This document shows, piece after piece, positions 57 through 25,708 of a stretch of 64,000 nt of DNA. The translations under genes and the position numbers were made by a program. The DNA comes from Antedon mediterranea (taxonomy: Eukaryota; Animalia; Echinodermata). Below the pieces are notes generated by a model. The model worked only from the letters and a program-made list of their open reading frames with translations. It was not told the origin of the DNA and ran no database searches. Each line of letters starts with the position of its first letter. Positions within the stretch are counted from its first letter, which is position 1. The DNA lies in contig NC_092673.1 in assembly GCF_964355755.1 (NCBI RefSeq), positions 28,579,648 through 28,643,647 on the forward strand, given 5' to 3'.

Positions 57-3000
57 AAAAGTGGGAATGGCTAAAGAGTTTACATCTGGACCACTGCCAT
101 TCTATCCAACTGGACAAGTTTTGCCAGTGGTTGACCAATGACCTTCCAGTCATTCACGATATCAGAATTGAGCACATGTTTAGAGCACCACCGAAAGGTT
201 GCTCTCGGGTTGGATTGAGCGCTGGAACAGGGCTAGGTGTGTCATCTGCACTTGTGGCCCCAATTGGCCAAACGGATGCAGCACCAAATAGCGCAGATAA
301 CCAGGAAGGTAAGTACAATTTATAAATACTTAAGCCCTCCTCTGTACTTGTTGTTGTTTTTATGATTGCAATAAAGAATAAATTATAAGGATAAAACTAA
401 TTAATATATTTAATTTTTACACCGCAGTAAGCGTCAATGCTAATCAAACTGTAGAAGTAGATGAGAAGATAAATTGGGACTTGCAGCCAGAAACCTCAAC
501 TAACTCACTGAATGAGAAAGGCTGTCAATCAACCAGTGTTCAACCGCCATTACACCAGCTTGATACCGGCCCACGGTACGGCAAACTTCCTAAAGACGAT
601 AGTAGTGAACAATCAGAGGCCAGAGGGTCTAGACACTATGAATCTCGCAAGGAGGATGAAAATAAAGAAATATCAAAACCAGAAGCAAAAGATGTGAAAA
701 AAAGCATCAAAAGGAAATCAGGTGGCTCTTCCTCTCCATCAACTCCTCCTGCATTTTTATCAAAACCACCATTTTGCTCGCCATCTTTACCCCAAGCGGT
801 AAAACCGTTACCTACATCATCAACATCTTTACCCTCATCAGAACCTTTGTCATCACCATCACAATCCGTACCACCATCAACATCATCACAATCAGCATTA
901 GCATCCTCACAATCAGCATCATCATACTCCATCTCATCAACATCATCATCGTACCGCAACTCCTCTTCAACAGATACACTTTCTTCACTTTTAGCAAACC
1001 CAGAACCGTCATCATCCGTTGGCCAATCATCTTGTGCCAATAAAAATGACGAGTCTATCAAAGATTCACCATCAAAGAAAAAACGAAGGCATAGCCAAAC
1101 AGATGAAACTAACTCCGCAAAAACTCCAGCAACTGGCAGTGATCTCCATCAGCGATCGTCGTCGGAACATAACACGGCGATGCAGAATCGTTGTCCAACT
1201 CTTGAGGAAAACTTTGGTCTTACAAGCAAAGCGTACGTGCAAGAATGTACCTATCATGACCATTCGGGTCAGATGATGATTCGTGCAGTGCGTACTCAAA
1301 GTGGCCAGAGCAGTGTTATCATACCAAGTAGTGACCTTGTGGGTGACCCCGATGTACAACCAGGGAGCAGTGCATTACATGCTGACCAACTGAAGAGTGG
1401 AGAACGTACGACGACTGTAGAATCCACTCTGAAACCTGACAATTCTATTGAGAAAGATCTGGATAAAACCTGTTCAGAATCCTGTGGTAAACGTAAATTA
1501 CCAAACGAACAATGTGATTTGAAAAATTTTTCTGCCGATAACAAAAATACCAAAAAAAGGTCTTTCTCGTCTGAGTCAGCTGTCACCACTTGTGATGCCA
1601 TCTTTAGTAATGCATCCGAACACACTGACAATGTTCTTGAAGAAAACATTGATACCAGTATGGATAGCACACAAGAAGACTCATTACCAACTACATCTAC
1701 TGAATCCAAAAGACAACATCTTCTTGATACAAAACAGTCCAATCAGAACAAACCTTTTTCAACATGTGATGTAAAAAATTCACTGACTTCAAAAAGTACA
1801 AATGCTAGCCCTACGAAAAAGTCTCAAAGTGACAAAAAAGTCTCAACTAAGAACCAGTCCACCAGTACTAGTGATCCTGTACCAGAGGATGATCCAGTAC
1901 AAGTGATGGTTATAACGTCCAAAACTTTAGAAGGTTTAACTCTTGACTCATGTGGTATATCACATCTGCATTTGACAGATTGCCCCCAACTTCAAACATT
2001 ATCAGGTAAATAGCAGTCAATATTGTTTTTGTATGGATTACTGTACCATATTTATATAGTATATACAGTTATACAGTATTTTTTACAATGGTATTCTGAA
2101 GACACATAGCTACATGATTTTACTACATTTCGTCATTTTGTTCAAATCTAACCCTAGCCATCGGTGCAAGTTCGGTGCTCTAGGAACTACTGATCTTGAC
2201 ACAACCTCCCCCCATCCCCCAATCCCCATAGATTGAGTATATAATACAATTTACGTCAGAGTAGAATGAAACATCTGACCAATGACATGATAGAAGCACT
2301 GAAGCGTAACGGTGCATTTTTACACATTATCATGGGTTATAGATCACCCGAAATGAGTACATTTACTGATAGTTTTACTGGTAGTATGTCAAATAATTAC
2401 AGTATTTATTACTTTTAAATACGGTAACGATTTGGAATAAATTTGTTTCAATTTAGTATATTTGAAAGTTTAATTATTTACAAAAGAATTGTAAAGTGCA
2501 TTTTAAAACATTTATATTGCATTTATTGGGCAATTATTATTAGCTTCAATTTCAGTGAATAAAGGTTATAACATGTAATGCTAATTTGCATAGTTTTCAG
2601 GGTTACTGTCTCTTGTGATAATGGAGTTTGTTTATAAACAATAAATTGAGTATAATTGTTACAGTATGGTAATAATAGTAAAATAAAACTAAAAATGTTC
2701 GATTCGGAATCCTCAACAGAAAAACTGTACTTCTTTATTTAAATGGTAAATTGTAAAATTCGGCTAAACACAAAATATGTTGAGTTATTAATCATGCAAA
2801 TAGTTATAAACGTTATATAATTTATTTATTTATTTATTTCAATAATATTTAGTGGTCCAATAAAGAAATATTATTAACACCATACTCAACATTAATGTCC
2901 CAATTGAGTGCCAATTTACATTAAATTGTGGCAATAATTTTATTTGAAATCTTTTTTGCAGGTTATGATCTACAGATGTTACGAGAGGTAAAAATGAAGA

Positions 3001-6000
3001 ACTGCCCGAATCTCATTCGTATAGACTTTTCACACGTACCATGTCTGTCAAATGCTGCTCTACTAGAACCTATATTATGGCTACCACCTACTTGCAGTAG
3101 ATTTGTCAATTTGCGTCCATTACATATGGTAATTACGTCAAGTTTACTTTATTTTATAATATTAATGATGTATCACATAGCCTATGAACAATTTTTGGCC
3201 CTCAAGAAAAATATAATTCTCTCTGGGGGGATCTCAAATGTTATAATACACCCCTAAGCAGTCAATATCTGTATAATATTACATAGCCTATGTAAATACG
3301 CTAACGTGATTGGTTGAAACTGCATCACATGACTACCGCTGCGAGGATCGTAAATCGTATATATCCTCGAGAACGATGATATTGACTGTGTAATTTTCGC
3401 GTAATTATCGTGTCCCCTGTCATTAAACATATAGATTCTCGAGTACGATGATATTGACTGTGTAATTTTCGTGTGCCAACACTCGCGTTGTCGATAAATA
3501 AACAAAAGTCATCAACTCGATCTTGAACTTGGGTGGAATTGTCACTCCATCGCAAGACAACGCTTCAACCGCTGCGCCACGAAAGTTGCTTGAAGAAATT
3601 AATCATCTAAACTATTTAAACTATGCATACATAGCGCCCTCATTTGTTATAAGTTCACCCTAAATGTGATGAAACACCGTTTGTGATTGGTCAATACTCA
3701 CGGTAGTAACCTAGTAACTAGTACGCGCTGAACATCCGGTGATTCGGCTCCTCGAAGATCGAGAAGAAGACGAATTGTTTATTCGGCCTACCTGATTATA
3801 ATATTATTATTTTTAATAGGCTTATTGATGGAAATTCTTCTGTTAATTTAAACGACCTAGGCCTAAGTGAATATTTTATTGCCAAGGAATCATTAATTAG
3901 TAATTATCTGTATATTATTCTTCGCAAGGTAAGGTGTCTAGGCAGGCTTGTTTAAATACAATACAAATACTATAGGAGGCCTAGCCTAGCTTCACCCAAC
4001 CCAGCAGACTTGTTCTTGGCTATATAATATAACAGATATTGCCTTTTATATCGGTTAAATATAAGATTTGACATCCCCGAGGGAATGATATTAAGTTCGA
4101 GGGAATATATATTTCCCGAAGCGCCAGCTGAGGGAAATATATATTCCCCGAGAGCTTAATATCATTCCCGAGGGGATGTCAAATCTTATATTTAACCTCT
4201 AAGCAGTCAATATCTGTATAATATCTAATACAGTTGAACCATTCCATTGGGAACCCTATTTTAGGTGACATTTCTTTTCAGAAGTCACTTTCCTGTGAAT
4301 TATCAAAGTTTTTAACATTACGGCCCAACCCGTATTCAGTAGGGATTCTGCTGTATTAGCGATGCTATTTGTTTAAAATTTGAAAAAAATTAATATAAAA
4401 AATGCTCATAATATTGTATAGAAAATATATCATAATAATTTTTGCCCATTTTAGAAGAGCAAGTCTGCCTTGGAGTCATGGTTGTTTGCGATTGATCACC
4501 ATAGTTACCAACTTATGTACGCTATTGAATCGAAGTCATCAGAACCGTCGATAGAGGGAAGTGTTTATATGGCTAATTGGATGGACATCGCTGTGTGGCT
4601 AAATAAGTAAGAGACATTTTCATTAAAGATGTATTGTTCCCGTAAACAAATATTATTTTTTTGTTGAATATGACATTTTAATGTCACATAATATTTATTC
4701 AATTTGACCAAAAGTTTGACCATTTACTTGAAAAAAATTGTAATTTAAACTAAAGCCAATGAGTTGTTGGTTAATTTTAACCATTTATTTTGACATTTTA
4801 TAACTGAAAACATTATTTTTCGGAAGTTTTTTTCTCTACAGAAGTGCTTAACTTAACTTAAAACTACAAAATGGCCTATTCAAAGTCTGATTTAAATAAT
4901 TAATCTTCAATTTTCATGTTTTTAGAGGATAATACATCTTTAAGACTAACTTAATCTATTTCTAATTATTAATCTATCTCACTATTTGTGGATGTTGTGA
5001 CAACTATAATGAAACCAGCAATAATGAAGGCTCACGGCAATATAACTTTAATCAAGATGATACTTGTAATTGCACTCAACTGATTCAGTCAAGTGCAATA
5101 TCTGATAGAAGAATCATCACTTGAAATAGGTTTTTTTAATCAGGTTTTCTCTTAATATGACTATTTGAAATTAGTTTACCTTAGTATATTGCATTTAGAT
5201 GGTTTTGACTAATAATAATTTATTGGCAGCTTTGTTTATTTTTCTTTTGGATCCCCGCTTATTTACTCAAATTATTAATACTTTATTATGAATTTACAAG
5301 AGAAATAAATGTTGATCTATTATGATTTATAAATCCAAAGGCAAATTACTGAAAAATGACAATGCTGTGGGTATCATTGACTGGATCTCATTGGAGATAT
5401 AAACAAAATAAGCGCTGACAATGCTGTGGGTATCAGTGACTGGATCTCATTGGAGATATAAACAAAATAAGCGCTGACAATGCTGTGGGTATCAGTGACT
5501 GGATCTCATTGGAGATACAAATAAAATAAGCGCTGACAATGCTGTGGGTATCAGTGACTGGATCTCATTGGAGATACAAATAAAATAAGCGCTGACAATG
5601 CTGTGGGTATCAGTGACTGGATCGCATTGGAGATACAAATAAAATAAGTGCTGACAATGCTGTGGGTATCAGTGACTGGATCTCATTGGAGATACAAATA
5701 AAATAAGCGCTGACAATGCTGTGGGTATCAGTGACTGGATCTCATTGAAGATACAAATAAAATAAGCAAAAAGCTAATAATAAATAAATAAGCAGAGCTT
5801 TCGTTCAACACATTATGATTGATACCTATTATAGCTTATAGAGCAGAAAATGTAGACAAGAATTTGTTGAATCATTTTGCATTTATCTGTAATTTATCCT
5901 GACAAATTCATGATTATTTGAAATTTTAAAGTAATATATAAATCTGTTTGTTTTCTTAATGTTATATATATTTATGTAAATCGAATTTTATACTTTATGG

Positions 6001-7333: not shown

Positions 7334-8126
7334 TTTCATAACTTACATTAGTATGATGACCTTTAACCTATGACATACTAGAAAGAGATCATGGATATAT
7401 TTACTGCACATATGGTGCTAAAAATATGGAAGAAAAGAAACAAGTTTTTACAGATAATTTCTTTATATTTATAATTTCTTTATAACACATATATGTTTCA
7501 GGAAACACAATTAATTATGTAGGTCAGTTCAGATCAGCCTTTAAGCTGATCTGGCTTGTTACACCCTTGTTGTTTGGCCATAGCGGTGCTAAAAAGGTCC
7601 CTGCTACCATGTGTTTCTTTTGGGTCAGAGAGAGATCAGCTGAACACCTTCTAACAATAAAAACAAATAGGCAAATTCTAATTAAATTGTACAATTTTTT
7701 TGTATAGAGATCATATAGAGAGAGGGAGGGGTGGTCATTTTATGAAAGCAAATGATTAATTTAAGGTTATATCAAAGAAAGAAGTTTGCTGTTAAAAGAA
7801 TATAACTAACAGTAGCGTCTTTATTTATAATTTTTATAATTATTTTTAGCTCTATATAATTATACTGTTAAATGATTGAAACAGTTCTTAATATTATATA
7901 GCTTTTGTTATTATTATTAATACATCTGCTGTATATACAATTTTACTATAAAAACAAATTATACAAACTTAAATTGTGTCCTCTTTCATCTTCCTCAACC
8001 ATGTAACCAATCAGGTCACAAAGAGGTCATCATAGGACTGGTCAACTGCTTACATTTTTACCAATCCATAGTATGTACAGTGTTTATTATTTAATTTAAA
8101 GGAAAAATATATGGATTCTGTGCTGC

Positions 8127-8619
8127 CCATTTTTCGACAATGTCCCTGTACTATACTGCCCTGTCATGAAAGAACGACATTTATGTCAAAACTGGTTACT
8201 ATAGCACAATTGACATGCGCAGAAACCATTATTCGCCTCTGCGCATGTTTATTATGCAATAGTAACCCTTTATGTAAAAAAAATAAAAGGGTCTAAAATC
8301 GGCCATTTTTCGAAAATTTCCCTGTAGGCCTACTATAGTACAGGAATTTTTTTTTTAAATGGCCAATTTTCGACCTTTTTATTTTTCGATAAAACTGGTT
8401 ACTATAGCACAATTAACATGCGCAGAACCCATTAGTCGACTCTGCGCATGTTTATTATGCTATAGTAACCATTTATGTCAAAACTGGTTACTATAGCACA
8501 ATTGACATGCGCAGAACCTATAATTCGTCTCTGTGCATGTTTATTATGCAATAGTAACCATTTATGTCAACAAATAAAAGGGTCGAAAATCGGCCATTTT
8601 TCGAAAATTTCCCTGCGCA
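8127..8619. repeat. Left part of a nested-hairpin repeat array (~285-bp units separated by a CCCTGTACTATAGTACAGG-type palindrome)
   Basis: Repeated GGTTACTATAGCACAATT[A/G]ACATGCGCAGA...TCTGCGCATGTTTATTATGC[T/A]ATAGTAACC hairpins inside AAATGGCCAATTTTCGACC/GGTCGAAAATCGGCCATTT inverted arms. The array resumes at 23709. Confidence 0.85.
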
Positions 8620-9836
8620 AAGGGTACAACTCAATCTTCTCACTCGAAACGGTAAAGAACGCAAAAATAAATGGACAAGAAATGGACAGAGCCATGTGGG
8701 GTCATTAAAACTGAATTGGACTGGGTCATTAGATAATGAGGAAACTAGACAATTGGCCAATGGGACCCAAGAATCTAGGAGGTTGTTTTGAATACCGGCA
8801 TACTAAAAACTGTCAATTTTAGGGGTTTATCACATGATCGATGTATTAAATGAATAAAAATATTAAATAATAGAATAATAAGACTTAAATTTTTTGTTAA
8901 AAGTTGAGAAAGTCGACATTTTTTTCATCCAATTTTCGAAAAATCCTTGTACTACAGTACATGAATTTTGTTTTTTAAAACACGGTAAATTCGACTACAA
9001 TATGTATGTTGTATTAATCGTTAGTTCTTTTAATATGACGAGACGTTTTTTGTTGTGTTTTTAGGGTGTGAACAATTGTCAATCAAAATTGTATATATAT
9101 GTTAAATACTATGTAACTATTTAAAAAACCCACCCTGACTTCTGATTGGCCAACCATATTCCAAGTAGTTTGATAAGTCAGCCTTTTTAAAAAATGTAGA
9201 CAAAATTACCGTTAACTTTGTCTGGGGCTTTTTTTCTAGGCCACATGGTATCATAGGATATGTGTAACTGTAAGAGGAGTAACTGAAGGTTACTGGATAA
9301 TAACCTCTATAGTATGAGTTATTATCAAAATATATTATTAGAATTGGTGGAATGAATTATTTGATTCACATCAAAATGAATTGTAGTGGAATTGCTCTTG
9401 AAATAAATATAAAATAGTTGAGAATTTACACTACAAGAATATAGAATTCACCATTTAATGTACACTCAACTGCAAAAGTTTCCCCTCTGCTTTTTTTGTA
9501 AGGGCTTGGGACCTTCAAATACAAAGTGCAATGAATGATATAATGTAAATTATAATGTAATAATTAAAACTGAATGTAATTTATAAAAATTACAAAATAA
9601 TTTACAACATTAATCATTGCTCTTTGGATTTGGCAGCATTAAAAACTTTTTTTTTTTATTATTATTATTAACTTTACTGCACATTCAGAATACCATTAGA
9701 TATGGTGGCCCAATGGCCAAATTGCATAAAATACAAATATTTTGTAAAAAGTGAATATAAAATCACAGAACAAATAAAAATTGAAGATATACGAAACAGT
9801 ATAAAAACTATCCATGGCTACAACAATCATTTGGAA

Positions 9837-12800
9837 TCATTCTTTTTGCTGCTTTTTTTTCCTCTCTTGACGAAGGCGACGGATGGCAACCATAGCCGAT
9901 TTCCATTCTTTAAAAGTCACATCAGATGTTGCAGCACAATACCAATTTCCATAGTACTGAGTGTGGTTCTTATTTAATCTTGGTTGCTTACACTTTGAGC
10001 ACACAATCGCAGACGTTCTTGGTTTGTATATTTTGATCGGTTTCCCTTCCGATATGTCTTTAGCCACTCGTTTTCTGTACAAGAGGGTAGTTCTAGGAAT
10101 ACGAGTACTGCTAGCCTCAGGGACTGACGGTGGTGGTTTTGCTATCTCGCCAGGAACTGGGATCGACGGTCTGTTTCCTAGAGTCGCTAGGCCGGAAGTG
10201 TTTTTTGGTAGGACAAATGTGAAAGATGGAGCGCTTGTATGAACGTTTAGCACCGCTGGCTTGGTTAAAGGTTCAAGTAGGGTTTTATCAGAGACAAGTT
10301 TGGGTATTGTTGCCGAGATGCCAGATTCCAACACTTGCCGCTCTTGCTTCTTTGACGTTCTGTTGTACCTGTTGAAAATAAATCAAACACAGTATTTAAA
10401 AACTTTAATGTATTTACTGTAGCGTAAAATAACAATCAATAACAAGTAAAAACTCACCACTGGATGAGTGTCGTACGATTTATCTCCATCAACTGAAGCT
10501 TAGCAAACAACATCAGGTGTCCATTCGATAGCACTTTCCGACGAATGTTCTTGTAGCCTTTGGTAATGAGCGGCCAGCGCTGGAAACGTTTACCTTCGAT
10601 AGATACGGTAGATGGATACGCTTCACATAGTTTTGTAATAATGCACTCCATATATCGATTGCAGTCCGGCCACTGAGCTGGCCCGGTGTTCTGACCTAAG
10701 AAGCATCTTTTAAAAAAAAAACAAAGAAACAAGTTAGATTTAAGACACATCATGCAACAAAGTAAAAAACGCTGGAAACTGCCTTACCGTCGAGTGCTTT
10801 CGACACCAGGTATTACGGAAGTAGTTTTACTTTTCTTGAACCTGCCTTTCGTCAGGTAATCTTGATGCCGTGCTTTGCGCTTAATGGTTTTGTCATAAGC
10901 ATCCAGGTTGTTCCACAACTTTGCGACATGTTCAGCATGACTTTGACTTATCACTCCACTGTCTTCCTTAAACTGCATAAGGTAGTCTGCCAGGGCTTCA
11001 ACTTTGGCGTAGCCTGGAATGTTGTCCGGTCCAGTGGAATCCTCAAGTTCCTAAATTGTAAAATATGAAAACAAAATATATAATCAGACTCGTGCATTGT
11101 ATTTCAAAACAGAAACAAAATTTGTGAGGTAGAAGCTAATGATACAAATTTAACTCACTGTGTCAAAAAGGGCTGCTTTTCCTTCACCATCATCATCATC
11201 ATTATCGTCACATGAAGGCAAGGGCTCCAGCTGGGGTGGTGAGGGTTCTTTAGCATTTCGAGGTTTAAAACAACGCTTAGGTGGTTTGTAGTCTGGTTGA
11301 GTCTTGTCATCATACCCTTCATCAACATCAAAAGTGTAAATTTCTTCATCAAAGTCTTCATCATAAATGGTATCTGTTTTGACAGGAAATTGAGTTTCGA
11401 GCACTTTGTTCGACTGGTTGTACAGGTACTCCACTCCGATGAGTTCTCCAGTGTACTTGTTTGGAATGATAAAACTTTTGTACACTTTTTTGCCAATCAC
11501 TTGCTCTGCCAGTATGTTGAGAGCATGCTGATGCAGTCCACTATATGTACTGGAGATGGTTCCTCCAGACTGGGTAGCGGCTAGTGCACGGTTTGCATTC
11601 CATCGAACAAGTCCATCCATCAGGTAAGCTTGGAAATGTAAGTCGCTAGCACGCTCACCTGAGAAAAAAATAAAACATCCATAATAATGAAATAATACAA
11701 AAATTTGTAGATCGGTTTGAAGATTTGGTAGATACCAAATAAAAAGTAATACTGTACCTGGAATAAACCTGTTAAGGTGAAGATGAAACGATTCCAAAGA
11801 AGTGGAGCCTCTTGCGCAACGATATACTGGCAAGGTAACTCCACCCTTAAGCATCTCACTGGTTTTTGTGTAGAGCGGGATGCCTTCTGGATCCTGGATG
11901 CAGGCGATGTGTCGCTCTTGTGAGCTCCAGATATCCCAGGTCTGTTCAGAGTCTAAGAGTGGGACGCCCATTGTGTCACGGCCTTCTTCACCATCGAGGG
12001 AAGTCAGCAGCTCTCGGATTAGGTTGGCAGTCTCGCGAGTCCCTCGTGTTGTCCTGCGACAATGTAAAGCATACTCCTTCTTGCTGATGTTTTTCAATAT
12101 GATGTCGTCTGTTGGGTTGGAATGCTTCTTGCTTGCAATGAGCTGTTCACGCTTGGCGAGCTTCAGACGTTCAACATCGTCAGCGCTCCACTCAAAAATG
12201 CAAGCGGAAAGACGTTTGAGAAATATCGGATACAACTGATGTGATTCTGTTGAACAAGCTGCAGCAATTCTCCTCATGAAGTGCCAGATGTCCAGACGAA
12301 TTTTCATGTCAGGCCAGGCGCTGAACATCTTCCTTATGCTTGAATGACCGCAGCAGTCACGGTCGACGTAGAGAATCTCGGGAGGAGGTACGCCTGCCAA
12401 AGCATATCGGTTAATGATGCCGTTTGTCATGTTGTTTAAGCCACATCCTTCTGCAGCAGTCAGGACTGTAATGAGCACCTGGCCGTACTCATTTCCGACG
12501 TTTGTTGCCCACGCTCCTGTTCCACATGCACGACCGGCTAGCTTCCTTACAATCTGCAAAAAAACCCAAACAAATTTATTCGGAAGAAAGCTTCCCCACA
12601 ATCTGCAAAAAAAAAAAAATTCAAATAATTAAAAGTAAATTGCAGAAATAGTATTGTTTATAAATTATTTACCCTTTTGGTCGAGTCAATCTTCAACACT
12701 CTTCCGAACGTCGATGTGATAGAAGCCTTGAGTTCGTCGATTCTTCCCATTACTTCGTTGCAGTAGATGGTAAGGAACCATTGGACAGAGGGAACAGGAA

Positions 12801-14439
12801 TCATTTTAGACACCTCATCAAATTTAGAAGCAGCAATGACATAATCATCACGAGAACCACAGAACTTCTTGCAATTTTCTAAGTAGAGAGCCACTCTCTC
12901 ATTCCACCGCCTTGTGTGTTGTTCTAAGACTTGTTGGCGAAGCTGTGATGGACTGTTACCGAGACCGCGGTACTTTAGAAGCTGCAGGACCCGGTTGTCG
13001 CAGGCCAAGTGATACGAAAGTACAACAGGAAACTGAAGGCGATGTGCTAAATCAAGTTGCTTTAAAATGTTTTCACTCCAGCCAATTTGTCTTTGTTTGC
13101 AATTAGAGCACCTCAGTTGCTCTGTTGCAAGAAAGTAGTGGCAGTCTAAATCCAGGACCGGACGAACGATTCCATGGAGGCCGCCTGATGTTAGTGGATA
13201 GCTCTTGCATTCTGGCCGAGGGCAGACCAGCTTGACCTGCCAAGTCTTGCGGGGCAACCAAAGAAGAAGACGATGACCGAAGTAACTGTTGGCCATGGGT
13301 ATGTTTTTGTTGAGCGGATCCGGTTGAGGTGGATAATACCAAAGTTGTTTGAGTTTAGTTGAATCCAACTCTGCAGTCCCCTTCTTCGATTTCTTGAATA
13401 AGGTTTTTGAAATCCACTGCTGATCGATCTCGGGCAAGTTCTTCTTCCATTTATCTGGTATGAGACAATCTGCAAGAAAAACCAAAACAAAATTGTATAA
13501 TTTATGAAACTACATTATGTAATTTTCATTTTCTAGTTTTAAAAATCAAACAAAATAATTAAAATTACACTGAAATAAACTACCTTCACTCTGTTTGATA
13601 GTTATTGTAGTGGATGGCATAGTACTAACAGGTTCATAAGATGTATTTGGTTGAGCTGTAAGACGGAAAATTAAAGAATATTTAGCAGTAAACTACTACT
13701 TCATTCGCTATCTACAGTATGCTATAAAACAATGTATTTAAACAACACGATTTTATGATTGAGTATAAATGAATGCATAAAAAAAAACGTAAACCCAGCA
13801 AGCCTACAACATACACAGGCACTAAAAATGCAAAACCTGAAATTTGTAATTTAGAAAATGCACAAAAAACACAAATATGGAATAAGTCTTACCTGGTGCA
13901 TATGAGGTTGATGGTTGCAAAGAAGCATCAAAGACATCAGTACCAGAAAGTGTTTCATCTGTGACATCCTCAACCTGTTGTAGCTTAATGCCAACAGGTA
14001 TGTACGATGTCTGTCTAGTTGGGCATTTCCTGCGGCGTTTTATTTCTTTCATTGCTATGGCTTCTTTGCCTTCTGGGAAAGACTCCAAGTACCTCTTAAA
14101 GTTGAATTTGTTAATACTAAGTGAACTTGTACTTGGAATTTCATTAGCCATTTTAATAACAAAACATACTGCATATTCCAGTACATTTTCGACCATCCAC
14201 TTGAATGTTTGTCCACTGTATTTACTATGCTGAAACTTGTAGCAGCCCAACACATCACATTCATCTTTGGTGTTTCCACCCAGCCTGCACACCTCCTTCA
14301 AGGCATCTTGGCGTACATCATCAGGAGTTAGACACTTGCCAGTTGGTCGTTTTCTCAAGCTGTTAAATACTACAGCAGCAGATGTATCTTCAAGAATTAA
14401 GGCACCCTCTTCACTGCGCCGAAAAGTTGGTCTGAACAT
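9837..14439 (-). CDS. Putative DDE transposase, 1251 aa, 8 coding exons: 14439-13893, 13655-13584, 13469-12673, 12553-11758, 11658-11159, 11050-10788, 10706-10458, 10368-9837
   Basis: GT-AG exons sum to 3756 nt (1251 aa + TGA) with consistent phases. Motifs KIDSTK (D1), LYVDRDCC (D2), RLDIWH (DxxH) and RGSTSLESFH (E) match the pattern of the C/DxxH group of DDE transposases (MULE/IS256/ISL3/hAT/P). Also a Cys-pair domain CPRPEC...CSNC (DUF6729-like from recollection, needs HMM check) and a C-terminal CxxC-H-C finger. Confidence 0.82.
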
Positions 14440-15970
14440 ACTGTACTGTCTATTGAACACCTGCAAAACTAAAAAAACTGATCAAAGGCAAAAATATATG
14501 TAAGTAAAGTATGTAAAAAAGAAAATTTTACCCGTATAATGCCACTGTGCACCGTGCAGTTGTAGTAAATGGCTGTAAATAAAAGAAAATCAAATCTAAA
14601 TAAAATAAAATATCTGTGGGTTAAAATTTCTCAAGTAATAATTAATAGTAGACCAAGACTTTAAATGTAAAATATTAATAAAATGAATTACATGTAGCAT
14701 TAAAACATATCTACTAAGAACAAACTATTTTATCTAAATTAAATTAAGAAAATATTACATATGAATAATTATGTTTTTTTTTCAATTAAAAAAACTATAT
14801 AAAGAATTACAACATAAATTAGAGTAAACTGAATAATCTTTGTTTATTAAACAGTGTATGTATCAACTCTTTGATCCCTGAGCACTTCCTTTAATGCAAT
14901 CAAATTATTTGAGAATCTTATCTAAATCCACAAATACAGTTGATTGCCTAATTAAACGAATGCTTTAGATCAAAGAGTTGAAGCCTACACTTAATTAAAC
15001 AATCATTATAATAAAAGTTAAATTGTTTATCTATCAATTAAAAGGGTTGACATGTGAACAAGGCTTTAGTCTGTTTCCCATGGATGCTATTCTGATACAG
15101 CACACATTTAGTTGTTTATAGTTTAAAATTATGTTTAGGCCTAAAATCTATTACAGGGTACATAGGCTAGTCTAACTAGTAGTAGGATTGTTAAAATATT
15201 AAATAAATTAAACTTTAAAGAATAGCTTAATTACTTTAAACTAAATTTATTTACTATGGGATGGTTCTACGATAAATACTAATCTAAGCCTAGGCCTAGT
15301 CTAAACTACTGTAGTAAGTTTTGAAGAAAAAAAATAACAGGGAGCCCTAAGTAGGTAGCATCTTACTAGGGCCTAGCACTTACAGGCCCATGGTTTGACT
15401 TACAATTCATGGCAACCAAAAAAGATCTAGGCCTACCTAGAGGTCTTTCTATCTAGCCTACTAGCTAGGCCTAGGCTATATAGGCCTAGTAAATACATTA
15501 ATTAAAGTAAGTGTCGAGTGACACTATCTAACCCTAACTAACCTATAAAGGCATGCGTTATTGTTAATACTTTATGAAATATATGTAGGCCTACTGGTAA
15601 TTAGGGGGATAAGTAATAATAGCAAATGCATTTTACCACACACAGAGCAGACTACCGCCAACAAGAATTAGCGTCGGCACCCATACAAACACATTTGCTA
15701 GGCCATGGCATAGTTTCTATTGACTATGGCTAGGCCTAGACCAAACAAGTTATCAACACTTTAAATGCCGATTTCAAGCATGAAATCAATTTCGCTCTTA
15801 CCTTTAATGCAAGTACACGTTCGAGTTGAATACAGCTACTACCAGAATTCGCCTTGAAATTAATAATAATAAGTCTAGAGGATTTGTAAAAAGATGTTGT
15901 CGCATGTAAGTCTCTGGACAAAATCTCATCATTGTTTGTGTTGTGAAAAACTTGTTGAAGTCACATATTA

Positions 15971-16106
15971 ATTACGTCACTTTTCAGTGTTCTGATTGGT
16001 CAAAATGACAAATTTGGAACAATTTTTCTAATGCCCTGATTACGTCACTTTTCAGTGCTCTGATTGTTCAACTTTTGGAACGCTTTCCGCTGCTCTGATT
16101 GGTCAA
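15971..16106 (-). promoter_or_regulatory. Putative element promoter: repeated CCAAT + TGACGTAA modules (copy 2 at 23515-23650)
   Basis: ATTACGTCACTTTTCAGTG[T/C]TCTGATTG[G/T]TCAA at 15971-16003 and 16039-16071, plus a partial third copy at 16092-16106. On the minus strand these read CCAAT-like box then ATF/CRE-like site, upstream of the transposase gene. Confidence 0.5.
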
Positions 16107-16163
16107 TCAGTTGTTCAATTCATTGTCCAATTCTACAGCACATATTGGGTTATTTGTAGTACT

Positions 16164-19100
16164 AAGGGTACAACTCAATCTTCTCACTCGAAACGGTAAA
16201 GAACGCAAAAATAAATGGACAAGAAATGGACAGAGCCATGTGGGGTCATTAAAACTGAATTGGACTGGGTCATTAGATAATGAGGAAACTAGACAATTGG
16301 CCAATGGGACCCAAGAATCTAGGAGGTTGTTTTGAATACCGGCATACTAAAAACTGTCAATTTTAGGGGTTTATCACATGATCGATGTATTAAATGAATA
16401 AAAATATTAAATAATAGAATAATAAGACTTAAATTTTTTGTTAAAAGTTGAGAAAGTCGACATTTTTTTCATCCAATTTTCGAAAAATCCTTGTACTACA
16501 GTACATGAATTTTGTTTTTTAAAACACGGTAAATTCGACTACAATATGTATGTTGTATTAATCGTTAGTTCTTTTAATATGACGAGACGTTTTTTGTTGT
16601 GTTTTTAGGGTGTGAACAATTGTCAATCAAAATTGTATATATATGTTAAATACTATGTAACTATTTAAAAAACCCACCCTGACTTCTGATTGGCCAACCA
16701 TATTCCAAGTAGTTTGATAAGTCAGCCTTTTTAAAAAATGTAGACAAAATTACCGTTAACTTTGTCTGGGGCTTTTTTTCTAGGCCACATGGTATCATAG
16801 GATATGTGTAACTGTAAGAGGAGTAACTGAAGGTTACTGGATAATAACCTCTATAGTATGAGTTATTATCAAAATATATTATTAGAATTGGTGGAATGAA
16901 TTATTTGATTCACATCAAAATGAATTGTAGTGGAATTGCTCTTGAAATAAATATAAAATAGTTGAGAATTTACACTACAAGAATATAGAATTCACCATTT
17001 AATGTACACTCAACTGCAAAAGTTTCCCCTCTGCTTTTTTTGTAAGGGCTTGGGACCTTCAAATACAAAGTGCAATGAATGATATAATGTAAATTATAAT
17101 GTAATAATTAAAACTGAATGTAATTTATAAAAATTACAAAATAATTTACAACATTAATCATTGCTCTTTGGATTTGGCAGCATTAAAAACTTTTTTTTTT
17201 TATTATTATTATTAACTTTACTGCACATTCAGAATACCATTAGATATGGTGGCCCAATGGCCAAATTGCATAAAATACAAATATTTTGTAAAAAGTGAAT
17301 ATAAAATCACAGAACAAATAAAAATTGAAGATATACGAAACAGTATAAAAACTATCCATGGCTACAACAATCATTTGGAATCATTCTTTTTGCTGCTTTT
17401 TTTTCCTCTCTTGACGAAGGCGACGGATGGCAACCATAGCCGATTTCCATTCTTTAAAAGTCACATCAGATGTTGCAGCACAATACCAATTTCCATAGTA
17501 CTGAGTGTGGTTCTTATTTAATCTTGGTTGCTTACACTTTGAGCACACAATCGCAGACGTTCTTGGTTTGTATATTTTGATCGGTTTCCCTTCCGATATG
17601 TCTTTAGCCACTCGTTTTCTGTACAAGAGGGTAGTTCTAGGAATACGAGTACTGCTAGCCTCAGGGACTGACGGTGGTGGTTTTGCTATCTCGCCAGGAA
17701 CTGGGATCGACGGTCTGTTTCCTAGAGTCGCTAGGCCGGAAGTGTTTTTTGGTAGGACAAATGTGAAAGATGGAGCGCTTGTATGAACGTTTAGCACCGC
17801 TGGCTTGGTTAAAGGTTCAAGTAGGGTTTTATCAGAGACAAGTTTGGGTATTGTTGCCGAGATGCCAGATTCCAACACTTGCCGCTCTTGCTTCTTTGAC
17901 GTTCTGTTGTACCTGTTGAAAATAAATCAAACACAGTATTTAAAAACTTTAATGTATTTACTGTAGCGTAAAATAACAATCAATAACAAGTAAAAACTCA
18001 CCACTGGATGAGTGTCGTACGATTTATCTCCATCAACTGAAGCTTAGCAAACAACATCAGGTGTCCATTCGATAGCACTTTCCGACGAATGTTCTTGTAG
18101 CCTTTGGTAATGAGCGGCCAGCGCTGGAAACGTTTACCTTCGATAGATACGGTAGATGGATACGCTTCACATAGTTTTGTAATAATGCACTCCATATATC
18201 GATTGCAGTCCGGCCACTGAGCTGGCCCGGTGTTCTGACCTAAGAAGCATCTTTTAAAAAAAAAACAAAGAAACAAGTTAGATTTAAGACACATCATGCA
18301 ACAAAGTAAAAAACGCTGGAAACTGCCTTACCGTCGAGTGCTTTCGACACCAGGTATTACGGAAGTAGTTTTACTTTTCTTGAACCTGCCTTTCGTCAGG
18401 TAATCTTGATGCCGTGCTTTGCGCTTAATGGTTTTGTCATAAGCATCCAGGTTGTTCCACAACTTTGCGACATGTTCAGCATGACTTTGACTTATCACTC
18501 CACTGTCTTCCTTAAACTGCATAAGGTAGTCTGCCAGGGCTTCAACTTTGGCGTAGCCTGGAATGTTGTCCGGTCCAGTGGAATCCTCAAGTTCCTAAAT
18601 TGTAAAATATGAAAACAAAATATATAATCAGACTCGTGCATTGTATTTCAAAACAGAAACAAAATTTGTGAGGTAGAAGCTAATGATACAAATTTAACTC
18701 ACTGTGTCAAAAAGGGCTGCTTTTCCTTCACCATCATCATCATCATTATCGTCACATGAAGGCAAGGGCTCCAGCTGGGGTGGTGAGGGTTCTTTAGCAT
18801 TTCGAGGTTTAAAACAACGCTTAGGTGGTTTGTAGTCTGGTTGAGTCTTGTCATCATACCCTTCATCAACATCAAAAGTGTAAATTTCTTCATCAAAGTC
18901 TTCATCATAAATGGTATCTGTTTTGACAGGAAATTGAGTTTCGAGCACTTTGTTCGACTGGTTGTACAGGTACTCCACTCCGATGAGTTCTCCAGTGTAC
19001 TTGTTTGGAATGATAAAACTTTTGTACACTTTTTTGCCAATCACTTGCTCTGCCAGTATGTTGAGAGCATGCTGATGCAGTCCACTATATGTACTGGAGA

Positions 19101-22100
19101 TGGTTCCTCCAGACTGGGTAGCGGCTAGTGCACGGTTTGCATTCCATCGAACAAGTCCATCCATCAGGTAAGCTTGGAAATGTAAGTCGCTAGCACGCTC
19201 ACCTGAGAAAAAAATAAAACATCCATAATAATGAAATAATACAAAAATTTGTAGATCGGTTTGAAGATTTGGTAGATACCAAATAAAAAGTAATACTGTA
19301 CCTGGAATAAACCTGTTAAGGTGAAGATGAAACGATTCCAAAGAAGTGGAGCCTCTTGCGCAACGATATACTGGCAAGGTAACTCCACCCTTAAGCATCT
19401 CACTGGTTTTTGTGTAGAGCGGGATGCCTTCTGGATCCTGGATGCAGGCGATGTGTCGCTCTTGTGAGCTCCAGATATCCCAGGTCTGTTCAGAGTCTAA
19501 GAGTGGGACGCCCATTGTGTCACGGCCTTCTTCACCATCGAGGGAAGTCAGCAGCTCTCGGATTAGGTTGGCAGTCTCGCGAGTCCCTCGTGTTGTCCTG
19601 CGACAATGTAAAGCATACTCCTTCTTGCTGATGTTTTTCAATATGATGTCGTCTGTTGGGTTGGAATGCTTCTTGCTTGCAATGAGCTGTTCACGCTTGG
19701 CGAGCTTCAGACGTTCAACATCGTCAGCGCTCCACTCAAAAATGCAAGCGGAAAGACGTTTGAGAAATATCGGATACAACTGATGTGATTCTGTTGAACA
19801 AGCTGCAGCAATTCTCCTCATGAAGTGCCAGATGTCCAGACGAATTTTCATGTCAGGCCAGGCGCTGAACATCTTCCTTATGCTTGAATGACCGCAGCAG
19901 TCACGGTCGACGTAGAGAATCTCGGGAGGAGGTACGCCTGCCAAAGCATATCGGTTAATGATGCCGTTTGTCATGTTGTTTAAGCCACATCCTTCTGCAG
20001 CAGTCAGGACTGTAATGAGCACCTGGCCGTACTCATTTCCGACGTTTGTTGCCCACGCTCCTGTTCCACATGCACGACCGGCTAGCTTCCTTACAATCTG
20101 CAAAAAAACCCAAACAAATTTATTCGGAAGAAAGCTTCCCCACAATCTGCAAAAAAAAAAAAATTCAAATAATTAAAAGTAAATTGCAGAAATAGTATTG
20201 TTTATAAATTATTTACCCTTTTGGTCGAGTCAATCTTCAACACTCTTCCGAACGTCGATGTGATAGAAGCCTTGAGTTCGTCGATTCTTCCCATTACTTC
20301 GTTGCAGTAGATGGTAAGGAACCATTGGACAGAGGGAACAGGAATCATTTTAGACACCTCATCAAATTTAGAAGCAGCAATGACATAATCATCACGAGAA
20401 CCACAGAACTTCTTGCAATTTTCTAAGTAGAGAGCCACTCTCTCATTCCACCGCCTTGTGTGTTGTTCTAAGACTTGTTGGCGAAGCTGTGATGGACTGT
20501 TACCGAGACCGCGGTACTTTAGAAGCTGCAGGACCCGGTTGTCGCAGGCCAAGTGATACGAAAGTACAACAGGAAACTGAAGGCGATGTGCTAAATCAAG
20601 TTGCTTTAAAATGTTTTCACTCCAGCCAATTTGTCTTTGTTTGCAATTAGAGCACCTCAGTTGCTCTGTTGCAAGAAAGTAGTGGCAGTCTAAATCCAGG
20701 ACCGGACGAACGATTCCATGGAGGCCGCCTGATGTTAGTGGATAGCTCTTGCATTCTGGCCGAGGGCAGACCAGCTTGACCTGCCAAGTCTTGCGGGGCA
20801 ACCAAAGAAGAAGACGATGACCGAAGTAACTGTTGGCCATGGGTATGTTTTTGTTGAGCGGATCCGGTTGAGGTGGATAATACCAAAGTTGTTTGAGTTT
20901 AGTTGAATCCAACTCTGCAGTCCCCTTCTTCGATTTCTTGAATAAGGTTTTTGAAATCCACTGCTGATCGATCTCGGGCAAGTTCTTCTTCCATTTATCT
21001 GGTATGAGACAATCTGCAAGAAAAACCAAAACAAAATTGTATAATTTATGAAACTACATTATGTAATTTTCATTTTCTAGTTTTAAAAATCAAACAAAAT
21101 AATTAAAATTACACTGAAATAAACTACCTTCACTCTGTTTGATAGTTATTGTAGTGGATGGCATAGTACTAACAGGTTCATAAGATGTATTTGGTTGAGC
21201 TGTAAGACGGAAAATTAAAGAATATTTAGCAGTAAACTACTACTTCATTCGCTATCTACAGTATGCTATAAAACAATGTATTTAAACAACACGATTTTAT
21301 GATTGAGTATAAATGAATGCATAAAAAAAAACGTAAACCCAGCAAGCCTACAACATACACAGGCACTAAAAATGCAAAACCTGAAATTTGTAATTTAGAA
21401 AATGCACAAAAAACACAAATATGGAATAAGTCTTACCTGGTGCATATGAGGTTGATGGTTGCAAAGAAGCATCAAAGACATCAGTACCAGAAAGTGTTTC
21501 ATCTGTGACATCCTCAACCTGTTGTAGCTTAATGCCAACAGGTATGTACGATGTCTGTCTAGTTGGGCATTTCCTGCGGCGTTTTATTTCTTTCATTGCT
21601 ATGGCTTCTTTGCCTTCTGGGAAAGACTCCAAGTACCTCTTAAAGTTGAATTTGTTAATACTAAGTGAACTTGTACTTGGAATTTCATTAGCCATTTTAA
21701 TAACAAAACATACTGCATATTCCAGTACATTTTCGACCATCCACTTGAATGTTTGTCCACTGTATTTACTATGCTGAAACTTGTAGCAGCCCAACACATC
21801 ACATTCATCTTTGGTGTTTCCACCCAGCCTGCACACCTCCTTCAAGGCATCTTGGCGTACATCATCAGGAGTTAGACACTTGCCAGTTGGTCGTTTTCTC
21901 AAGCTGTTAAATACTACAGCAGCAGATGTATCTTCAAGAATTAAGGCACCCTCTTCACTGCGCCGAAAAGTTGGTCTGAACATACTGTACTGTCTATTGA
22001 ACACCTGCAAAACTAAAAAAACTGATCAAAGGCAAAAATATATGTAAGTAAAGTATGTAAAAAAGAAAATTTTACCCGTATAATGCCACTGTGCACCGTG

Positions 22101-23708
22101 CAGTTGTAGTAAATGGCTGTAAATAAAAGAAAATCAAATCTAAATAAAATAAAATATCTGTGGGTTAAAATTTCTCAAGTAATAATTAATAGTAGACCAA
22201 GACTTTAAATGTAAAATATTAATAAAATGAATTACATGTAGCATTAAAACATATCTACTAAGAACAAACTATTTTATCTAAATTAAATTAAGAAAATATT
22301 ACATATGAATAATTATGTTTTTTTTTCAATTAAAAAAACTATATAAAGAATTACAACATAAATTAGAGTAAACTGAATAATCTTTGTTTATTAAACAGTG
22401 TATGTATCAACTCTTTGATCCCTGAGCACTTCCTTTAATGCAATCAAATTATTTGAGAATCTTATCTAAATCCACAAATACAGTTGATTGCCTAATTAAA
22501 CGAATGCTTTAGATCAAAGAGTTGAAGCCTACACTTAATTAAACAATCATTATAATAAAAGTTAAATTGTTTATCTATCAATTAAAAGGGTTGACATGTG
22601 AACAAGGCTTTAGTCTGTTTCCCATGGATGCTATTCTGATACAGCACACATTTAGTTGTTTATAGTTTAAAATTATGTTTAGGCCTAAAATCTATTACAG
22701 GGTACATAGGCTAGTCTAACTAGTAGTAGGATTGTTAAAATATTAAATAAATTAAACTTTAAAGAATAGCTTAATTACTTTAAACTAAATTTATTTACTA
22801 TGGGATGGTTCTACGATAAATACTAATCTAAGCCTAGGCCTAGTCTAAACTACTGTAGTAAGTTTTGAAGAAAAAAAATAACAGGGAGCCCTAAGTAGGT
22901 AGCATCTTACTAGGGCCTAGCACTTACAGGCCCATGGTTTGACTTACAATTCATGGCAACCAAAAAAGATCTAGGCCTACCTAGAGGTCTTTCTATCTAG
23001 CCTACTAGCTAGGCCTAGGCTATATAGGCCTAGTAAATACATTAATTAAAGTAAGTGTCGAGTGACACTATCTAACCCTAACTAACCTATAAAGGCATGC
23101 GTTATTGTTAATACTTTATGAAATATATGTAGGCCTACTGGTAATTAGGGGGATAAGTAATAATAGCAAATGCATTTTACCACACACAGAGCAGACTACC
23201 GCCAACAAGAATTAGCGTCGGCACCCATACAAACACATTTGCTAGGCCATGGCATAGTTTCTATTGACTATGGCTAGGCCTAGACCAAACAAGTTATCAA
23301 CACTTTAAATGCCGATTTCAAGCATGAAATCAATTTCGCTCTTACCTTTAATGCAAGTACACGTTCGAGTTGAATACAGCTACTACCAGAATTCGCCTTG
23401 AAATTAATAATAATAAGTCTAGAGGATTTGTAAAAAGATGTTGTCGCATGTAAGTCTCTGGACAAAATCTCATCATTGTTTGTGTTGTGAAAAACTTGTT
23501 GAAGTCACATATTAATTACGTCACTTTTCAGTGTTCTGATTGGTCAAAATGACAAATTTGGAACAATTTTTCTAATGCCCTGATTACGTCACTTTTCAGT
23601 GCTCTGATTGTTCAACTTTTGGAACGCTTTCCGCTGCTCTGATTGGTCAATCAGTTGTTCAATTCATTGTCCAATTCTACAGCACATATTGGGTTATTTG
23701 TAGTACTA
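16164..23708 (-). mobile_element. 7544-bp putative autonomous DNA transposon, copy 2 of the dimer
   Basis: Matches copy 1 at offset 7544. Internal junction TTTGTAGTACTA|AGGGTACAAC at 16164/16165; right junction TTTGTAGTACTA|TAGTACAG at 23708/23709. Confidence 0.88.
17381..21983 (-). CDS. Putative DDE transposase, 1251 aa, copy 2 (exons of copy 1 shifted by +7544)
   Basis: ORF-track translations (214, 275, 483, 64, 99, 165 aa pieces) are identical to copy 1, with the same splice sites. Confidence 0.82.
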
Positions 23709-24420
23709 TAGTACAGCGATTTTTTTTTAAAAATGGCAAATTTTCGACCGTTTTATTTTTCGATAAATCTGGTTACTATAGCACAATTAACATGCACAGA
23801 CCCCATTAGTCGACTCTGCGCATGTTTATTATGCTATAGTAACCATTTATGTCAAAAACTGGTTACTATAGCATAATTGACATGCGCAGAACCCATTATT
23901 CGTCTCTGCGTATGTTTATTATGCAATAGTAATCATTTATGTCAAAAAATAAAAGGGTCGAAAATCGGCCATTTTTCGAAAATTTCCCTTTTTTTGGGGA
24001 AAAATGGCCAAAATATCCAATTTTTAAAACCAAATAATTATGCGATAATATTGCCATATATGCACATATACTGCGTTATCATCATCTTATAGAGCCATAG
24101 TAACTAGTTATGTAAAAAAATTAAAGGGTCGAAATTTGCAAATTTTTTGGAAAATTTCACTGTGCTATAGTACAGGGTTTTTTTTTTAAAGATTCCCAAA
24201 AAATCCACTTTTTAAAACCCAATAATTATGCGAAAATATTTCTTTATGCGCATATATTGTGTTATCATCATCTTATAGAGCCATAGTAACTAGTTATGTC
24301 ACACTATAGTACATGGATTTTTTTTAATGGCCAAATTTCAACCCTTTTATTTTTTTTACATAACTGGTTACTATATCGTAAATCGTCATGCGCAGAATCA
24401 CATAATGTGCTCTGCAAGTT
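23709..24420. repeat. Right part of the nested-hairpin repeat array
   Basis: 23709-23988 is a close copy of 8337-8614. More diverged units follow, separated by CTGTGCTATAGTACAGGG (~24160-24177) and ACTATAGTACATGG (~24303-24316). Confidence 0.85.
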
Positions 24421-25708
24421 ACCACCTCAACATCTGAGGAAAATAGATAATACACTTTTTTTCATAAAAATTACAAAATCACGACCGTTTTATTTTTCGT
24501 CATAATAATATAATAATAACAATAATATGACTCTAGCAATTATATGGCGTAATTGATTTTTTTTTATCGGTATTTTTTAGTCTTATACATTTTATTTTTC
24601 GACATAACTTGGTAGAAACTAATGAACTACAAGATGGTTTCCGACGCAATCTAGCAAATTATTGTTGAAAGGTTGATTTGTTTTGCCGAATAAACCAATT
24701 ACGGAGATGACAATGGCTGCTAGCGTGTACTTTAATAACGTCATCGTGTTTGGTATTAATCTCTTATTGCTTAATTCAGTATTTCCTCCGATACTCGTTA
24801 ACCTTGTGCCTAATAGTAGTCCTAGTTTGTGATATGTCGTATACTATTGTAACATTACAATTACAAACGTTTTATTTTATCAAACACAATATCTTACATA
24901 CGCTCCAAACGTTTATAGCTCTGTCTACACTATCAAATGTTATGTGACAACAAAAATGTGATGATATCTTTTCATACGGAGATGTAATCTTGGAACGCTA
25001 GGATGATGATCGCAGAAAAAAAGAAAGATATTCGTGCAGAAAACACATAATAGGTTGATTTATTTTATTATCTCTTAAAACAACTAAGTATCAACACGTA
25101 ATAACCGATTTACATGTAATTATGATAACATATATCAATAATACAATAAGTCACTAGTTGTCATAGTTTTTTAATCAAAAATATTTGGAATTTATGGTTC
25201 TGGCTATCCTGTCGGCGAGCAACTTAATTTTTTACTAAAAAGTGTTGTTTCTGGTCATATATTGTAATGGTTTTCATACACATCTAATGAATACGCAGAT
25301 CTCCATTAAAGGTGTGCACTTGACTCTGTGAAGATCGTGATTGTACCCTTCCTCCTTAGTTGTTGGGAGTGACTTGCGCCCACTACGTAGGCACCACGCA
25401 CGCGAGTACACCAATGACAGGCGACAGTTCGAATAATAGCCTACATCGCTTTTGATTGATCAAAACCCTTACGTTACGATTACGTCGATGTGTCGCGTTG
25501 CTAGTGGGAAGTTAGCATTATCACTAGAGACGTAATACAATTACGCAACGTAAATGATTTTACCAATCACAAGCGATGGATTATTCGCGCTCATTATCGC
25601 TTGTCATTGGTCAACGCACTTGCGTTTCGTTTACACCATAGCGTTGCGTCCTAGTGGGAACCAAGCTTTAAGGAGTTACACGAAGGGCCGCCGTCTGTGT
25701 GAACATTA

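Follow-up and report, generated by a model that had tools for sequence, protein, structure and literature searches.

The 64,000-nt stretch of the Antedon mediterranea genome analysed here (the window) contains a chain of host repeats interrupted by an element that, by its sequence features, is a tandem pair of identical Dada DDE transposons of 7,538 bp each (Table 1). The two copies show zero mismatches over 8620-16164 at an offset of 7544. Elsewhere, the window holds an 852-aa stop-to-stop ORF with a PHD, an APE endonuclease and the start of an RT (43471-46029, minus strand), i.e. a non-LTR retrotransposon; a rhodopsin-family GPCR ORF (25709-26629, minus strand) approximately 2 kb from the element; a 543-aa stop-to-stop ORF (382-2013, plus strand) with no Pfam match at E≤1; minisatellites at 5298-5828, 46532-47361, 48325-48654 and 60398-61475, with units of 59, 17, 22 and 17-19 bp, respectively; and dispersed repeats of a family whose ends are of the CTGTCTACACT type.

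Table 1. Features of the element, its inner target-like segment and the adjoining host repeats
Feature	Position	Strand	Basis or remark
Near-intact host junction	8288..8375	+	Used as reference
Host foldback repeat, right end cut by element; CTATAG before it	8339..8614	+	Repeat alignment
Left flank hexamer GCGCAA, in place of target GTACTA	8615..8620	+	Sequence; recurs in organism D
Dada transposon, copy 1	8621..16158	-	Ends in register with U6-flanked L050/L065; protein motifs
Subterminal AATCTTCTC	8633..8641	+	12 nt from hexamer, as in U6-flanked L050/L065
Inner junction copy, element copy 1	8912..8995	+	291 nt inside transposase-3' end
Inner segment layout	~40-bp right-end arm, hexamer 8952-8957, ~38-bp left-end arm	+	Arm alignment
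Transposase gene, 8 exons, ~1,250 aa	9837..14439	-	P0121 mapping; DUF6729; copy 2 at +7544
Exons	14439-13894, 13656-13585, 13470-12673, 12553-11756, 11659-11192, 11050-10787, 10708-10457, 10367-9840	-	Seed-mapped limits
Spacer GTACTA between tandem copies	16159..16164	+	Spanned by contigs of organisms A, B, C
Dada transposon, copy 2	16165..23702	-	Identical to copy 1, head to tail
Inner junction copy, element copy 2	16456..16539	+	Identical to copy 1
Right flank hexamer GTACTA, target-derived	23703..23708	+	Sequence
Next host repeat copy; CTATAG at 23706-23711 before it	23712..23989	+	Repeat alignment
More strongly diverged copies of the host repeat (junctions 24165, 24304)	23990..24505	+	Repeat alignment

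The one-sided GCGCAA replacement at the left flank has also been described for Dada-tA, and TCTTCTCTG is known from the same source as a subterminal motif of Dada ends (PMC3706591). At the other end of the element just AAT is kept, and there are no TIRs. End-to-end junctions occur in four organisms (runs X1, X5, X6, X9 and X15), in contigs where tandem and circle are indistinguishable; the metagenomic locus L018 holds a junction similar to that of the window (L018:9078-9084). Other hexamers between abutted ends were each met in single contigs, being GCG-led in X1 and X5 and TTGTAG in X15 (depth 3.7). A 3' non-coding stretch of the element (16658-16870, and 9114-9326) also belongs to a repeat of higher depth whose left flank differs (X1, X5, X6), possibly a second Dada family or a derivative.

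The long minus-strand ORFs of the element map to one transposase. A. mediterranea has an annotated 1,250-aa protein, P0121, with which the gene product shares 99% identity over the query exon. Pfam assigns DUF6729 alone to this transposase, and no other Pfam family was found in the five element ORFs scanned. The DDE-type enzyme proposed in the initial annotation is borne out by the motif set of P0121 (D468, D536, DxxH at 560-563 and E726, assigned by motif and spacing), in which the D-D spacing of 68 equals that of Dada-U6_DR. The N-terminal CCCC finger is spaced 5/33/3 and the C-terminal CCHC finger 3/9/9, against 5/35/3 and 3/10/9 published for Dada (PMC3706591). Five full-length proteins of the P0121 cluster, which has 16 members, come from several chromosome-size contigs and are 98.9-99.8% identical, and CT..AC intron joints were found in run X5 only; the near-identical proteins together with these spliced joints suggest that the family has likely been active recently. 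P0122 and P0123 (74-77% to the query exon) represent at least one further Dada family annotated in the same species. In a quick tree of the 102 of 114 sequences long enough for inclusion, the transposase groups with echinoderm proteins in a clade of seven rows (SH-aLRT 96), itself part of an unresolved 68-row group (SH-aLRT 83) that includes the U6-flanked metagenomic loci L005, L050 and L065.

On these features, the element is a member of the Dada superfamily, as defined by Kojima & Jurka 2013 (PMC3706591) and Kojima 2022 (PMC8869645), and not of the strict Dada-U6 family. Dada is known for inserting in small-RNA genes, and has intron-containing members of 4.7-11 kb and a 6-7-bp TSD that is sometimes replaced by GCGCAA; the window element lies within this size range, has introns and shows GCGCAA/GTACTA/GTACTA at its successive borders. 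With the U6 lineage it shares the DDE and DxxH motifs, the CCCC and CCHC fingers, introns, the lack of TIRs, 6-bp flanks with GCGCAA on one side, the TCTTCTC end motif, hexamer-split tandem copies, CCCT(G) at the cut, and a transposase antisense to the CCCT arm. It departs from that lineage in three respects: it sits in a junction of MITE-like repeats instead of in a small-RNA gene, no CAGAGAAGA motif is present in the target arm, and the element contains an inner target copy, undescribed in the accessible parts of PMC3706591 and PMC8869645. A 2026 review, in its accessible part, mentions Dada merely as sequence-restricted (PMC13565253).

The fold of the transposase is predicted to be closest to that of ISCth4, a transposase of the IS256 family that works by copy-out/paste-in. 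ISCth4 is nearest to the modelled core (Z 6.7, a value that is middling by itself; rmsd 4.1; 149 aligned), and a Foldseek search with the model of a 77%-identical paralogue returned ISCth4 at E 1.9e-4 with Hermes next. A PDB sequence search gave nothing at E≤1 and two chance matches at E ~3, and Foldseek with the 264-aa core gave none at E≤0.001. Cas12i2, considered as a fold relative, was rejected as noise (E 0.03-0.4, TM 0.17-0.19); IS110, TnpB and Fanzor entries are not among the fold matches listed, an absence that does not exclude them. ISCth4 joins one of its ends beside the other, and these junctions integrate best with a 6-bp spacer (PMC7780238; PDB 6xg8). The window family resembles ISCth4, its nearest solved fold, in having end-to-end junctions with 6-bp spacers, and differs in that ISCth4 is bacterial, carries TIRs, makes an 8-bp TSD and has no strict target, while circles of the Dada family are here only presumed. 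We infer from these likenesses that the element works like an IS256-type transposon.

The initial annotation placed the element in a host array, and a repeat array is indeed present; by nature it is a chain of MITE-like foldback repeats of ~275 bp, with TACAG...CTGTA termini and internal 90-bp units. The window contains no isolated copy with both flanks, and the 6-bp flank is constant, CTATAG preceding 4/4 host left ends. At 8327-8338 two unlike hexamers, GGCCTA and CTATAG, lie side by side between host repeat ends, which suggests insertion in 6-bp units. An Rfam scan of 7500-25000 found no U6, and Rfam miRNA matches on the host repeats were all below the gathering score. TA..TA termini with 6-bp flanks are the signature of IS3EU (PMC10045372, PMC12730594), and the host repeats resemble non-autonomous IS3EU/GingerRoot elements in both respects; they differ from IS3EU in that their flank is the constant CTATAG rather than the typical random TSD. 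With inverted arms on either side of a constant 6-bp core, they are also reminiscent of tyrosine-recombinase sites (PMC3212892). The terminal repeats of Cryptons are 6 bp long, and these elements are described without TIRs (PMC3212892), whereas the host repeat has inverted ends. No coding partner was seen for the host repeat in the window.

The element entered such a junction 3 nt to the left of its central hexamer and has duplicated GTACTA, the Dada cut being CCCT|GTACTA and lying across the right end of the host repeat. In organism D, one contig has the same repeat end with GCGCA at the left border of the element; this flank and the GTACTA junctions in organisms A, B and C point to a target common to several organisms, albeit from few flanks. 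Unlike U6, the host arm bears no likeness to the element ends apart from AGGG, and end mimicry therefore does not explain target recognition.

The initial annotation had further reported a target-like sequence approximately 290 bp inside the left end, with a second copy at 16454-16540. Both are present, as an 84-bp segment running from GTCGA (8912-8916) through TCGAC (8991-8995) and its counterpart in the other element copy, which matches without mismatch. We aligned the segment to the near-intact host junction, which carries one extra hexamer. The whole element reaches a best local score of 52 against this junction, and 26 once the segment is masked; a score of 52 was attained by 0/400 AT-matched genomic 88-mers (maximum 39) and 0/400 dinucleotide shuffles (maximum 38). 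Among 166 sub-windows of the element just two stand out (52 and 43), both overlapping the segment, with the next at 33, and the top score among 1,048 sub-windows outside the element and array is 38. The lengthwise alignment with the host junction thus holds, and it does so for both arms: the inner left arm shares 27 identities over 40 nt with the right end of the host repeat, the inner right arm 28 over 39 nt with its left end, and the swapped pairings only 13 and 12. Such arm-specific pairing indicates that the segment copies a real, oriented junction and not a generic palindrome, and its target-oriented position inside the element ends agrees with the earlier view that it is not simple flank carry-over.

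The copy is diverged. Identity to the target is ~70%, with gaps; same-strand pairs of host repeat copies in the window are 77-94% identical, and the divergence of the segment is similar. Likeness past both TCGAC motifs is non-significant (383, 34, 24 and 498 of 500 shuffles were equally good), and a profile of nine host arms detected no single inner arm at E<5, so that significance attaches to the joined junction only. The match is centred on the insertion palindrome, as had been claimed, yet the segment centre in the window is CTACAG where the host has CTATAG, and the insertion point is offset from the hexamer as given above. Three of the seven bases preceding the cut differ between segment and target, the cut-adjacent changes being CCTT for CCCT and CATG for CAGG; TACATG is present in a host repeat copy too (24310). 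The motif AWTGGMC, common to the element ends and host arms, has 21 further occurrences elsewhere. The segment folds weakly (z -1.0/-1.4 versus -2.3/-5.4 for host junctions), its region contains T-runs of 4-7 on both strands, and the first two polyA-type signals (9660 and 9459) fall short of it by ~460-660 nt. Rfam gave no match over the segment at E≤5, and a bacterial promoter scan was at chance level.

Contigs of organisms A, B, C and D all retain the segment; run X13 yielded no contig for this comparison. In B-D its centre has T where the window has C, and 14 nt agree exactly with the target core; in organism A, the main subfamily has a mismatch in the core. Indels separate the organisms within the segment (a 1-bp loss at 16470 and a 3-bp gain after 16483), and the 97 bp adjoining it also differ by an indel. 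The changes listed for organism D number 3 in the 84 nt of the segment against 5/77 and 8/130 in neighbouring DNA; here the segment is not clearly more conserved than the DNA beside it. Contigs of organism C lack the left arm (16417-16483) or, in one case with a weak joint (side 21), the whole segment (16411-17118). A contig of the presumed RNA run X5 spans the segment, although contigs cannot show RNA ends or level.

Relatives were drawn from a scan of metagenome contigs, from which the best 80 of 170 loci were taken; four of the 80 have ends recognizable by pattern (L050, L065, L018 and L005). L050:111-4788 is a complete Dada element between two U6 halves, whereas L065:4484 and L005:55 are partial Dada-U6 elements; the parts covered are all of L050, the 3' ends of L065 and L018, and the 5' part of L005. 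The 4,678 inner bases of L050 score at best 22 and 26 against its own U6 halves, within the null range, and L065, L018 and L005 reach at best 19, 24 and 22 against U6, with no inner U6 copy in any of these. Rfam returned four U6 matches over the 21 loci scanned, all at element borders, and a tRNA scan of 56 of the 80 loci made one call only (L045, inside the gene region). An exact-word search of Dataset S1 of PMC8869645, which misses diverged copies and line-split words, left 10 of 16 target words without a match and gave no convincing inner copy in the part of the dataset covered; the other words matched flanks included at entry ends, figure text, scattered 9-mers and the Dada-tS-3_GMo tRNA cluster. 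The U6 10-mer CTGCGCAAGG occurs in Dada-U6_DaAe ~75 nt from the 5' end and internal to it, at a level of ~1 match expected by chance. A U6 likeness noticed by eye in the 3' ends of fish Dada-U6 entries was set aside; other entries contain the motif in one orientation or the other. We take this motif to resemble an E-box. The initial annotation proposed testing whether the internal segment co-varies with the target across related families, and named its absence from relatives as a refutation of the guide; the U6-flanked relatives covered here do lack it, which indicates that Dada does not in general rely on an inner target copy. Our literature search, with Repbase Reports and subscription papers outside its range, turned up no description of Dada carrying an inner target copy or targeting MITE junctions.

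To the reading we prefer we assign a probability of roughly 0.48: the segment would be an old copy captured from a neighbouring empty host junction and carried as a passenger, with the transposase protein picking the target. The family would descend from a U6-targeting Dada that later moved to the repeat joint owing to the CCCT|G at the cut, which is common to U6. It may travel through end-to-end junctions with a 6-bp spacer, in the manner of IS256, which would explain the tandem pair, the travelling GCGCAA and a taste for end-like targets such as U6. As the element always sits beside joints, repair or one-ended transposition could copy one into its 3' non-coding region, an event that probably took place long ago, before organisms A-D diverged. 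The protein itself would read the target, CCCT(G) being the part common to U6, and direct target reading by the protein is proposed in both Dada papers (PMC3706591, PMC8869645). A possible parallel is the Dada-tS-3_GMo entry, which opens with ~2 kb of tRNA-gene cluster before its promoter repeats (PMC8869645 Dataset S1), as expected from flank capture, or else from a mis-drawn boundary.

Capture is consistent with the lack of an inner copy in relatives, the ~70% identity, the indels, the weak fold, the lack of extra conservation, the T-runs and polyA-type signals short of the segment, the combination of CCCT(G) with a U6-type end motif, and the ISCth4-like fold. Against it counts the form of the copy, which is complete, centred and target-oriented, with the same TCGAC stop on both arms; chance capture does not predict this symmetry. 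The segment is also retained in A-D while the adjoining 97 bp vary by indel, the 14-nt core persists in B-D, fish Dadas carry a B-box at the same end (see below), and few flanks were seen. Moreover, a protein-only model does not yet explain how the repeat joint is recognized.

Some of these points are better accommodated if the segment is a cis-acting DNA bait, the principal rival reading, which we nonetheless consider rather unlikely. Its junction motifs would bind a repeat-end protein (a transposase or recombinase belonging to the repeats themselves, some host factor, or the target-binding domain of Dada) and so bridge the donor to target junctions, while the CCTT-for-CCCT and CATG-for-CAGG changes beside the cut would block self-insertion. 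The kept motif islands (TTTTCGAAAA, both TCGAC and the core) with tolerated spacing changes, the symmetric segment ends and the retention in four organisms would fit such a role. The absence of extra conservation in organism D and the deletions in organism C fit it poorly, and the occurrence of TACATG in a host copy means that the supposedly protective change may simply be inherited.

The bait reading also has an analogy in fish. The word GGATTCGAACC is, we assume, the Pol III B-box word on the other strand. In Dataset S1 of PMC8869645, 17 of its 18 matches lie ≤~330 nt from the 3' end of a fish Dada entry, where 0.25 would be expected by chance, and the remaining one lies in an included tRNA flank; the opposite-strand (sense) word has 5/6 of its dataset matches near an entry 3' end. 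In many fish Dada entries B-box words sit 45-330 nt inside the transposase-3' end, antisense in tD, tV, tK, tL and tN and sense in tA and tS, and the U6 families of fish Dada have B-box variants. The accessible text of PMC8869645 contains neither 'B box' nor 'TFIIIC', and no paper with both Dada and B-box/TFIIIC terms is among the matches listed. The clustering implies that, at the very end where the window family has its MITE junction, fish Dadas bear a signal belonging to their target class, and suggests by analogy that the Dada 3' end region can hold a functional DNA signal, which lends weight to the bait idea. More broadly, Dadas might practise DNA mimicry, keeping a protein-binding signal of the target class near one end as homing bait, a proposal we regard as doubtful to about the same degree. 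At the ends of the invertebrate U6-flanked loci L050, L065, L018 and L005 no B-box was found by pattern, and a signal of this kind is therefore not general.

Improbable, in our estimate, is that the segment is a working recombination or self-target site, serving as substrate for the mobilizer of the host repeat or for Dada itself. Abutted ends around a 6-bp core do resemble a circle junction or a tyrosine-recombinase site: the CTATAG hexamer is constant at the host left ends, YR sites are laid out as inverted arms flanking a core of 6-8 bp, and the terminal repeats known from Cryptons measure 6 bp (PMC3212892). Nevertheless, the matches listed for the organisms' contigs include no element opened at the inner core, either as a joint or as a loose end, and the tandem pair is joined at its ends rather than nested in the segment.

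Least of all do we favour the guide put forward in the initial annotation, in which a transcript of the segment would pair with the junction and direct the DDE transposase, a lineage-specific arrangement tied to leaving U6. In IS110 bridge-RNA and TnpB/Fanzor omegaRNA systems a target-matching sequence lies inside the element near an end; the IS110 system uses a DEDD/RuvC-type recombinase, and TnpB/Fanzor a separate RuvC nuclease gene. The window element is like them in its internal, near-end target match and unlike them in its DDE enzyme, the lack of a structured scaffold and the lack of target co-variation in relatives; on the features testable, it is not a bridge-RNA or omegaRNA system. A guide would suit a segment downstream of the transposase gene, near the end, target-oriented and site-centred, with a 14-nt exact core in B-D and a form in A that a minus-strand RNA would meet as a G-T wobble, and it is the family with a non-U6 target that has the inner copy, while the U6 relatives have neither. 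Set against this, U6-flanked relatives lack an inner copy, as does the published set by exact words in the part covered; three of the seven pre-cut bases mismatch the target, indels intervene, and the main subfamily of organism A has a core mismatch; there is no extra conservation; and the segment offers no scaffold-like fold or Rfam match, while its palindromic core would self-fold. The RNA-guide reading is not supported by the sequence comparisons, and the alternatives already named in the initial annotation, a relic or a decoy/binding site, fit better. We hold it most improbable that capture of a new target's copy took a Dada lineage away from U6, with a transcript of that copy guiding the DDE transposase to MITE junctions, and so gave rise to an RNA-guided eukaryotic DDE transposon.

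What the locus presents is a family that has switched to a target other than an RNA gene and holds, within itself, a copy of that target that could be deleted. For safe-harbour insertion, an animal DDE transposase that is site-specific and carries 7 kb is of interest. Were the segment programmable, it would represent a guided integrase of a new class; should it be a relic, the family would add a new target class to Dada and support for IS256-like movement.
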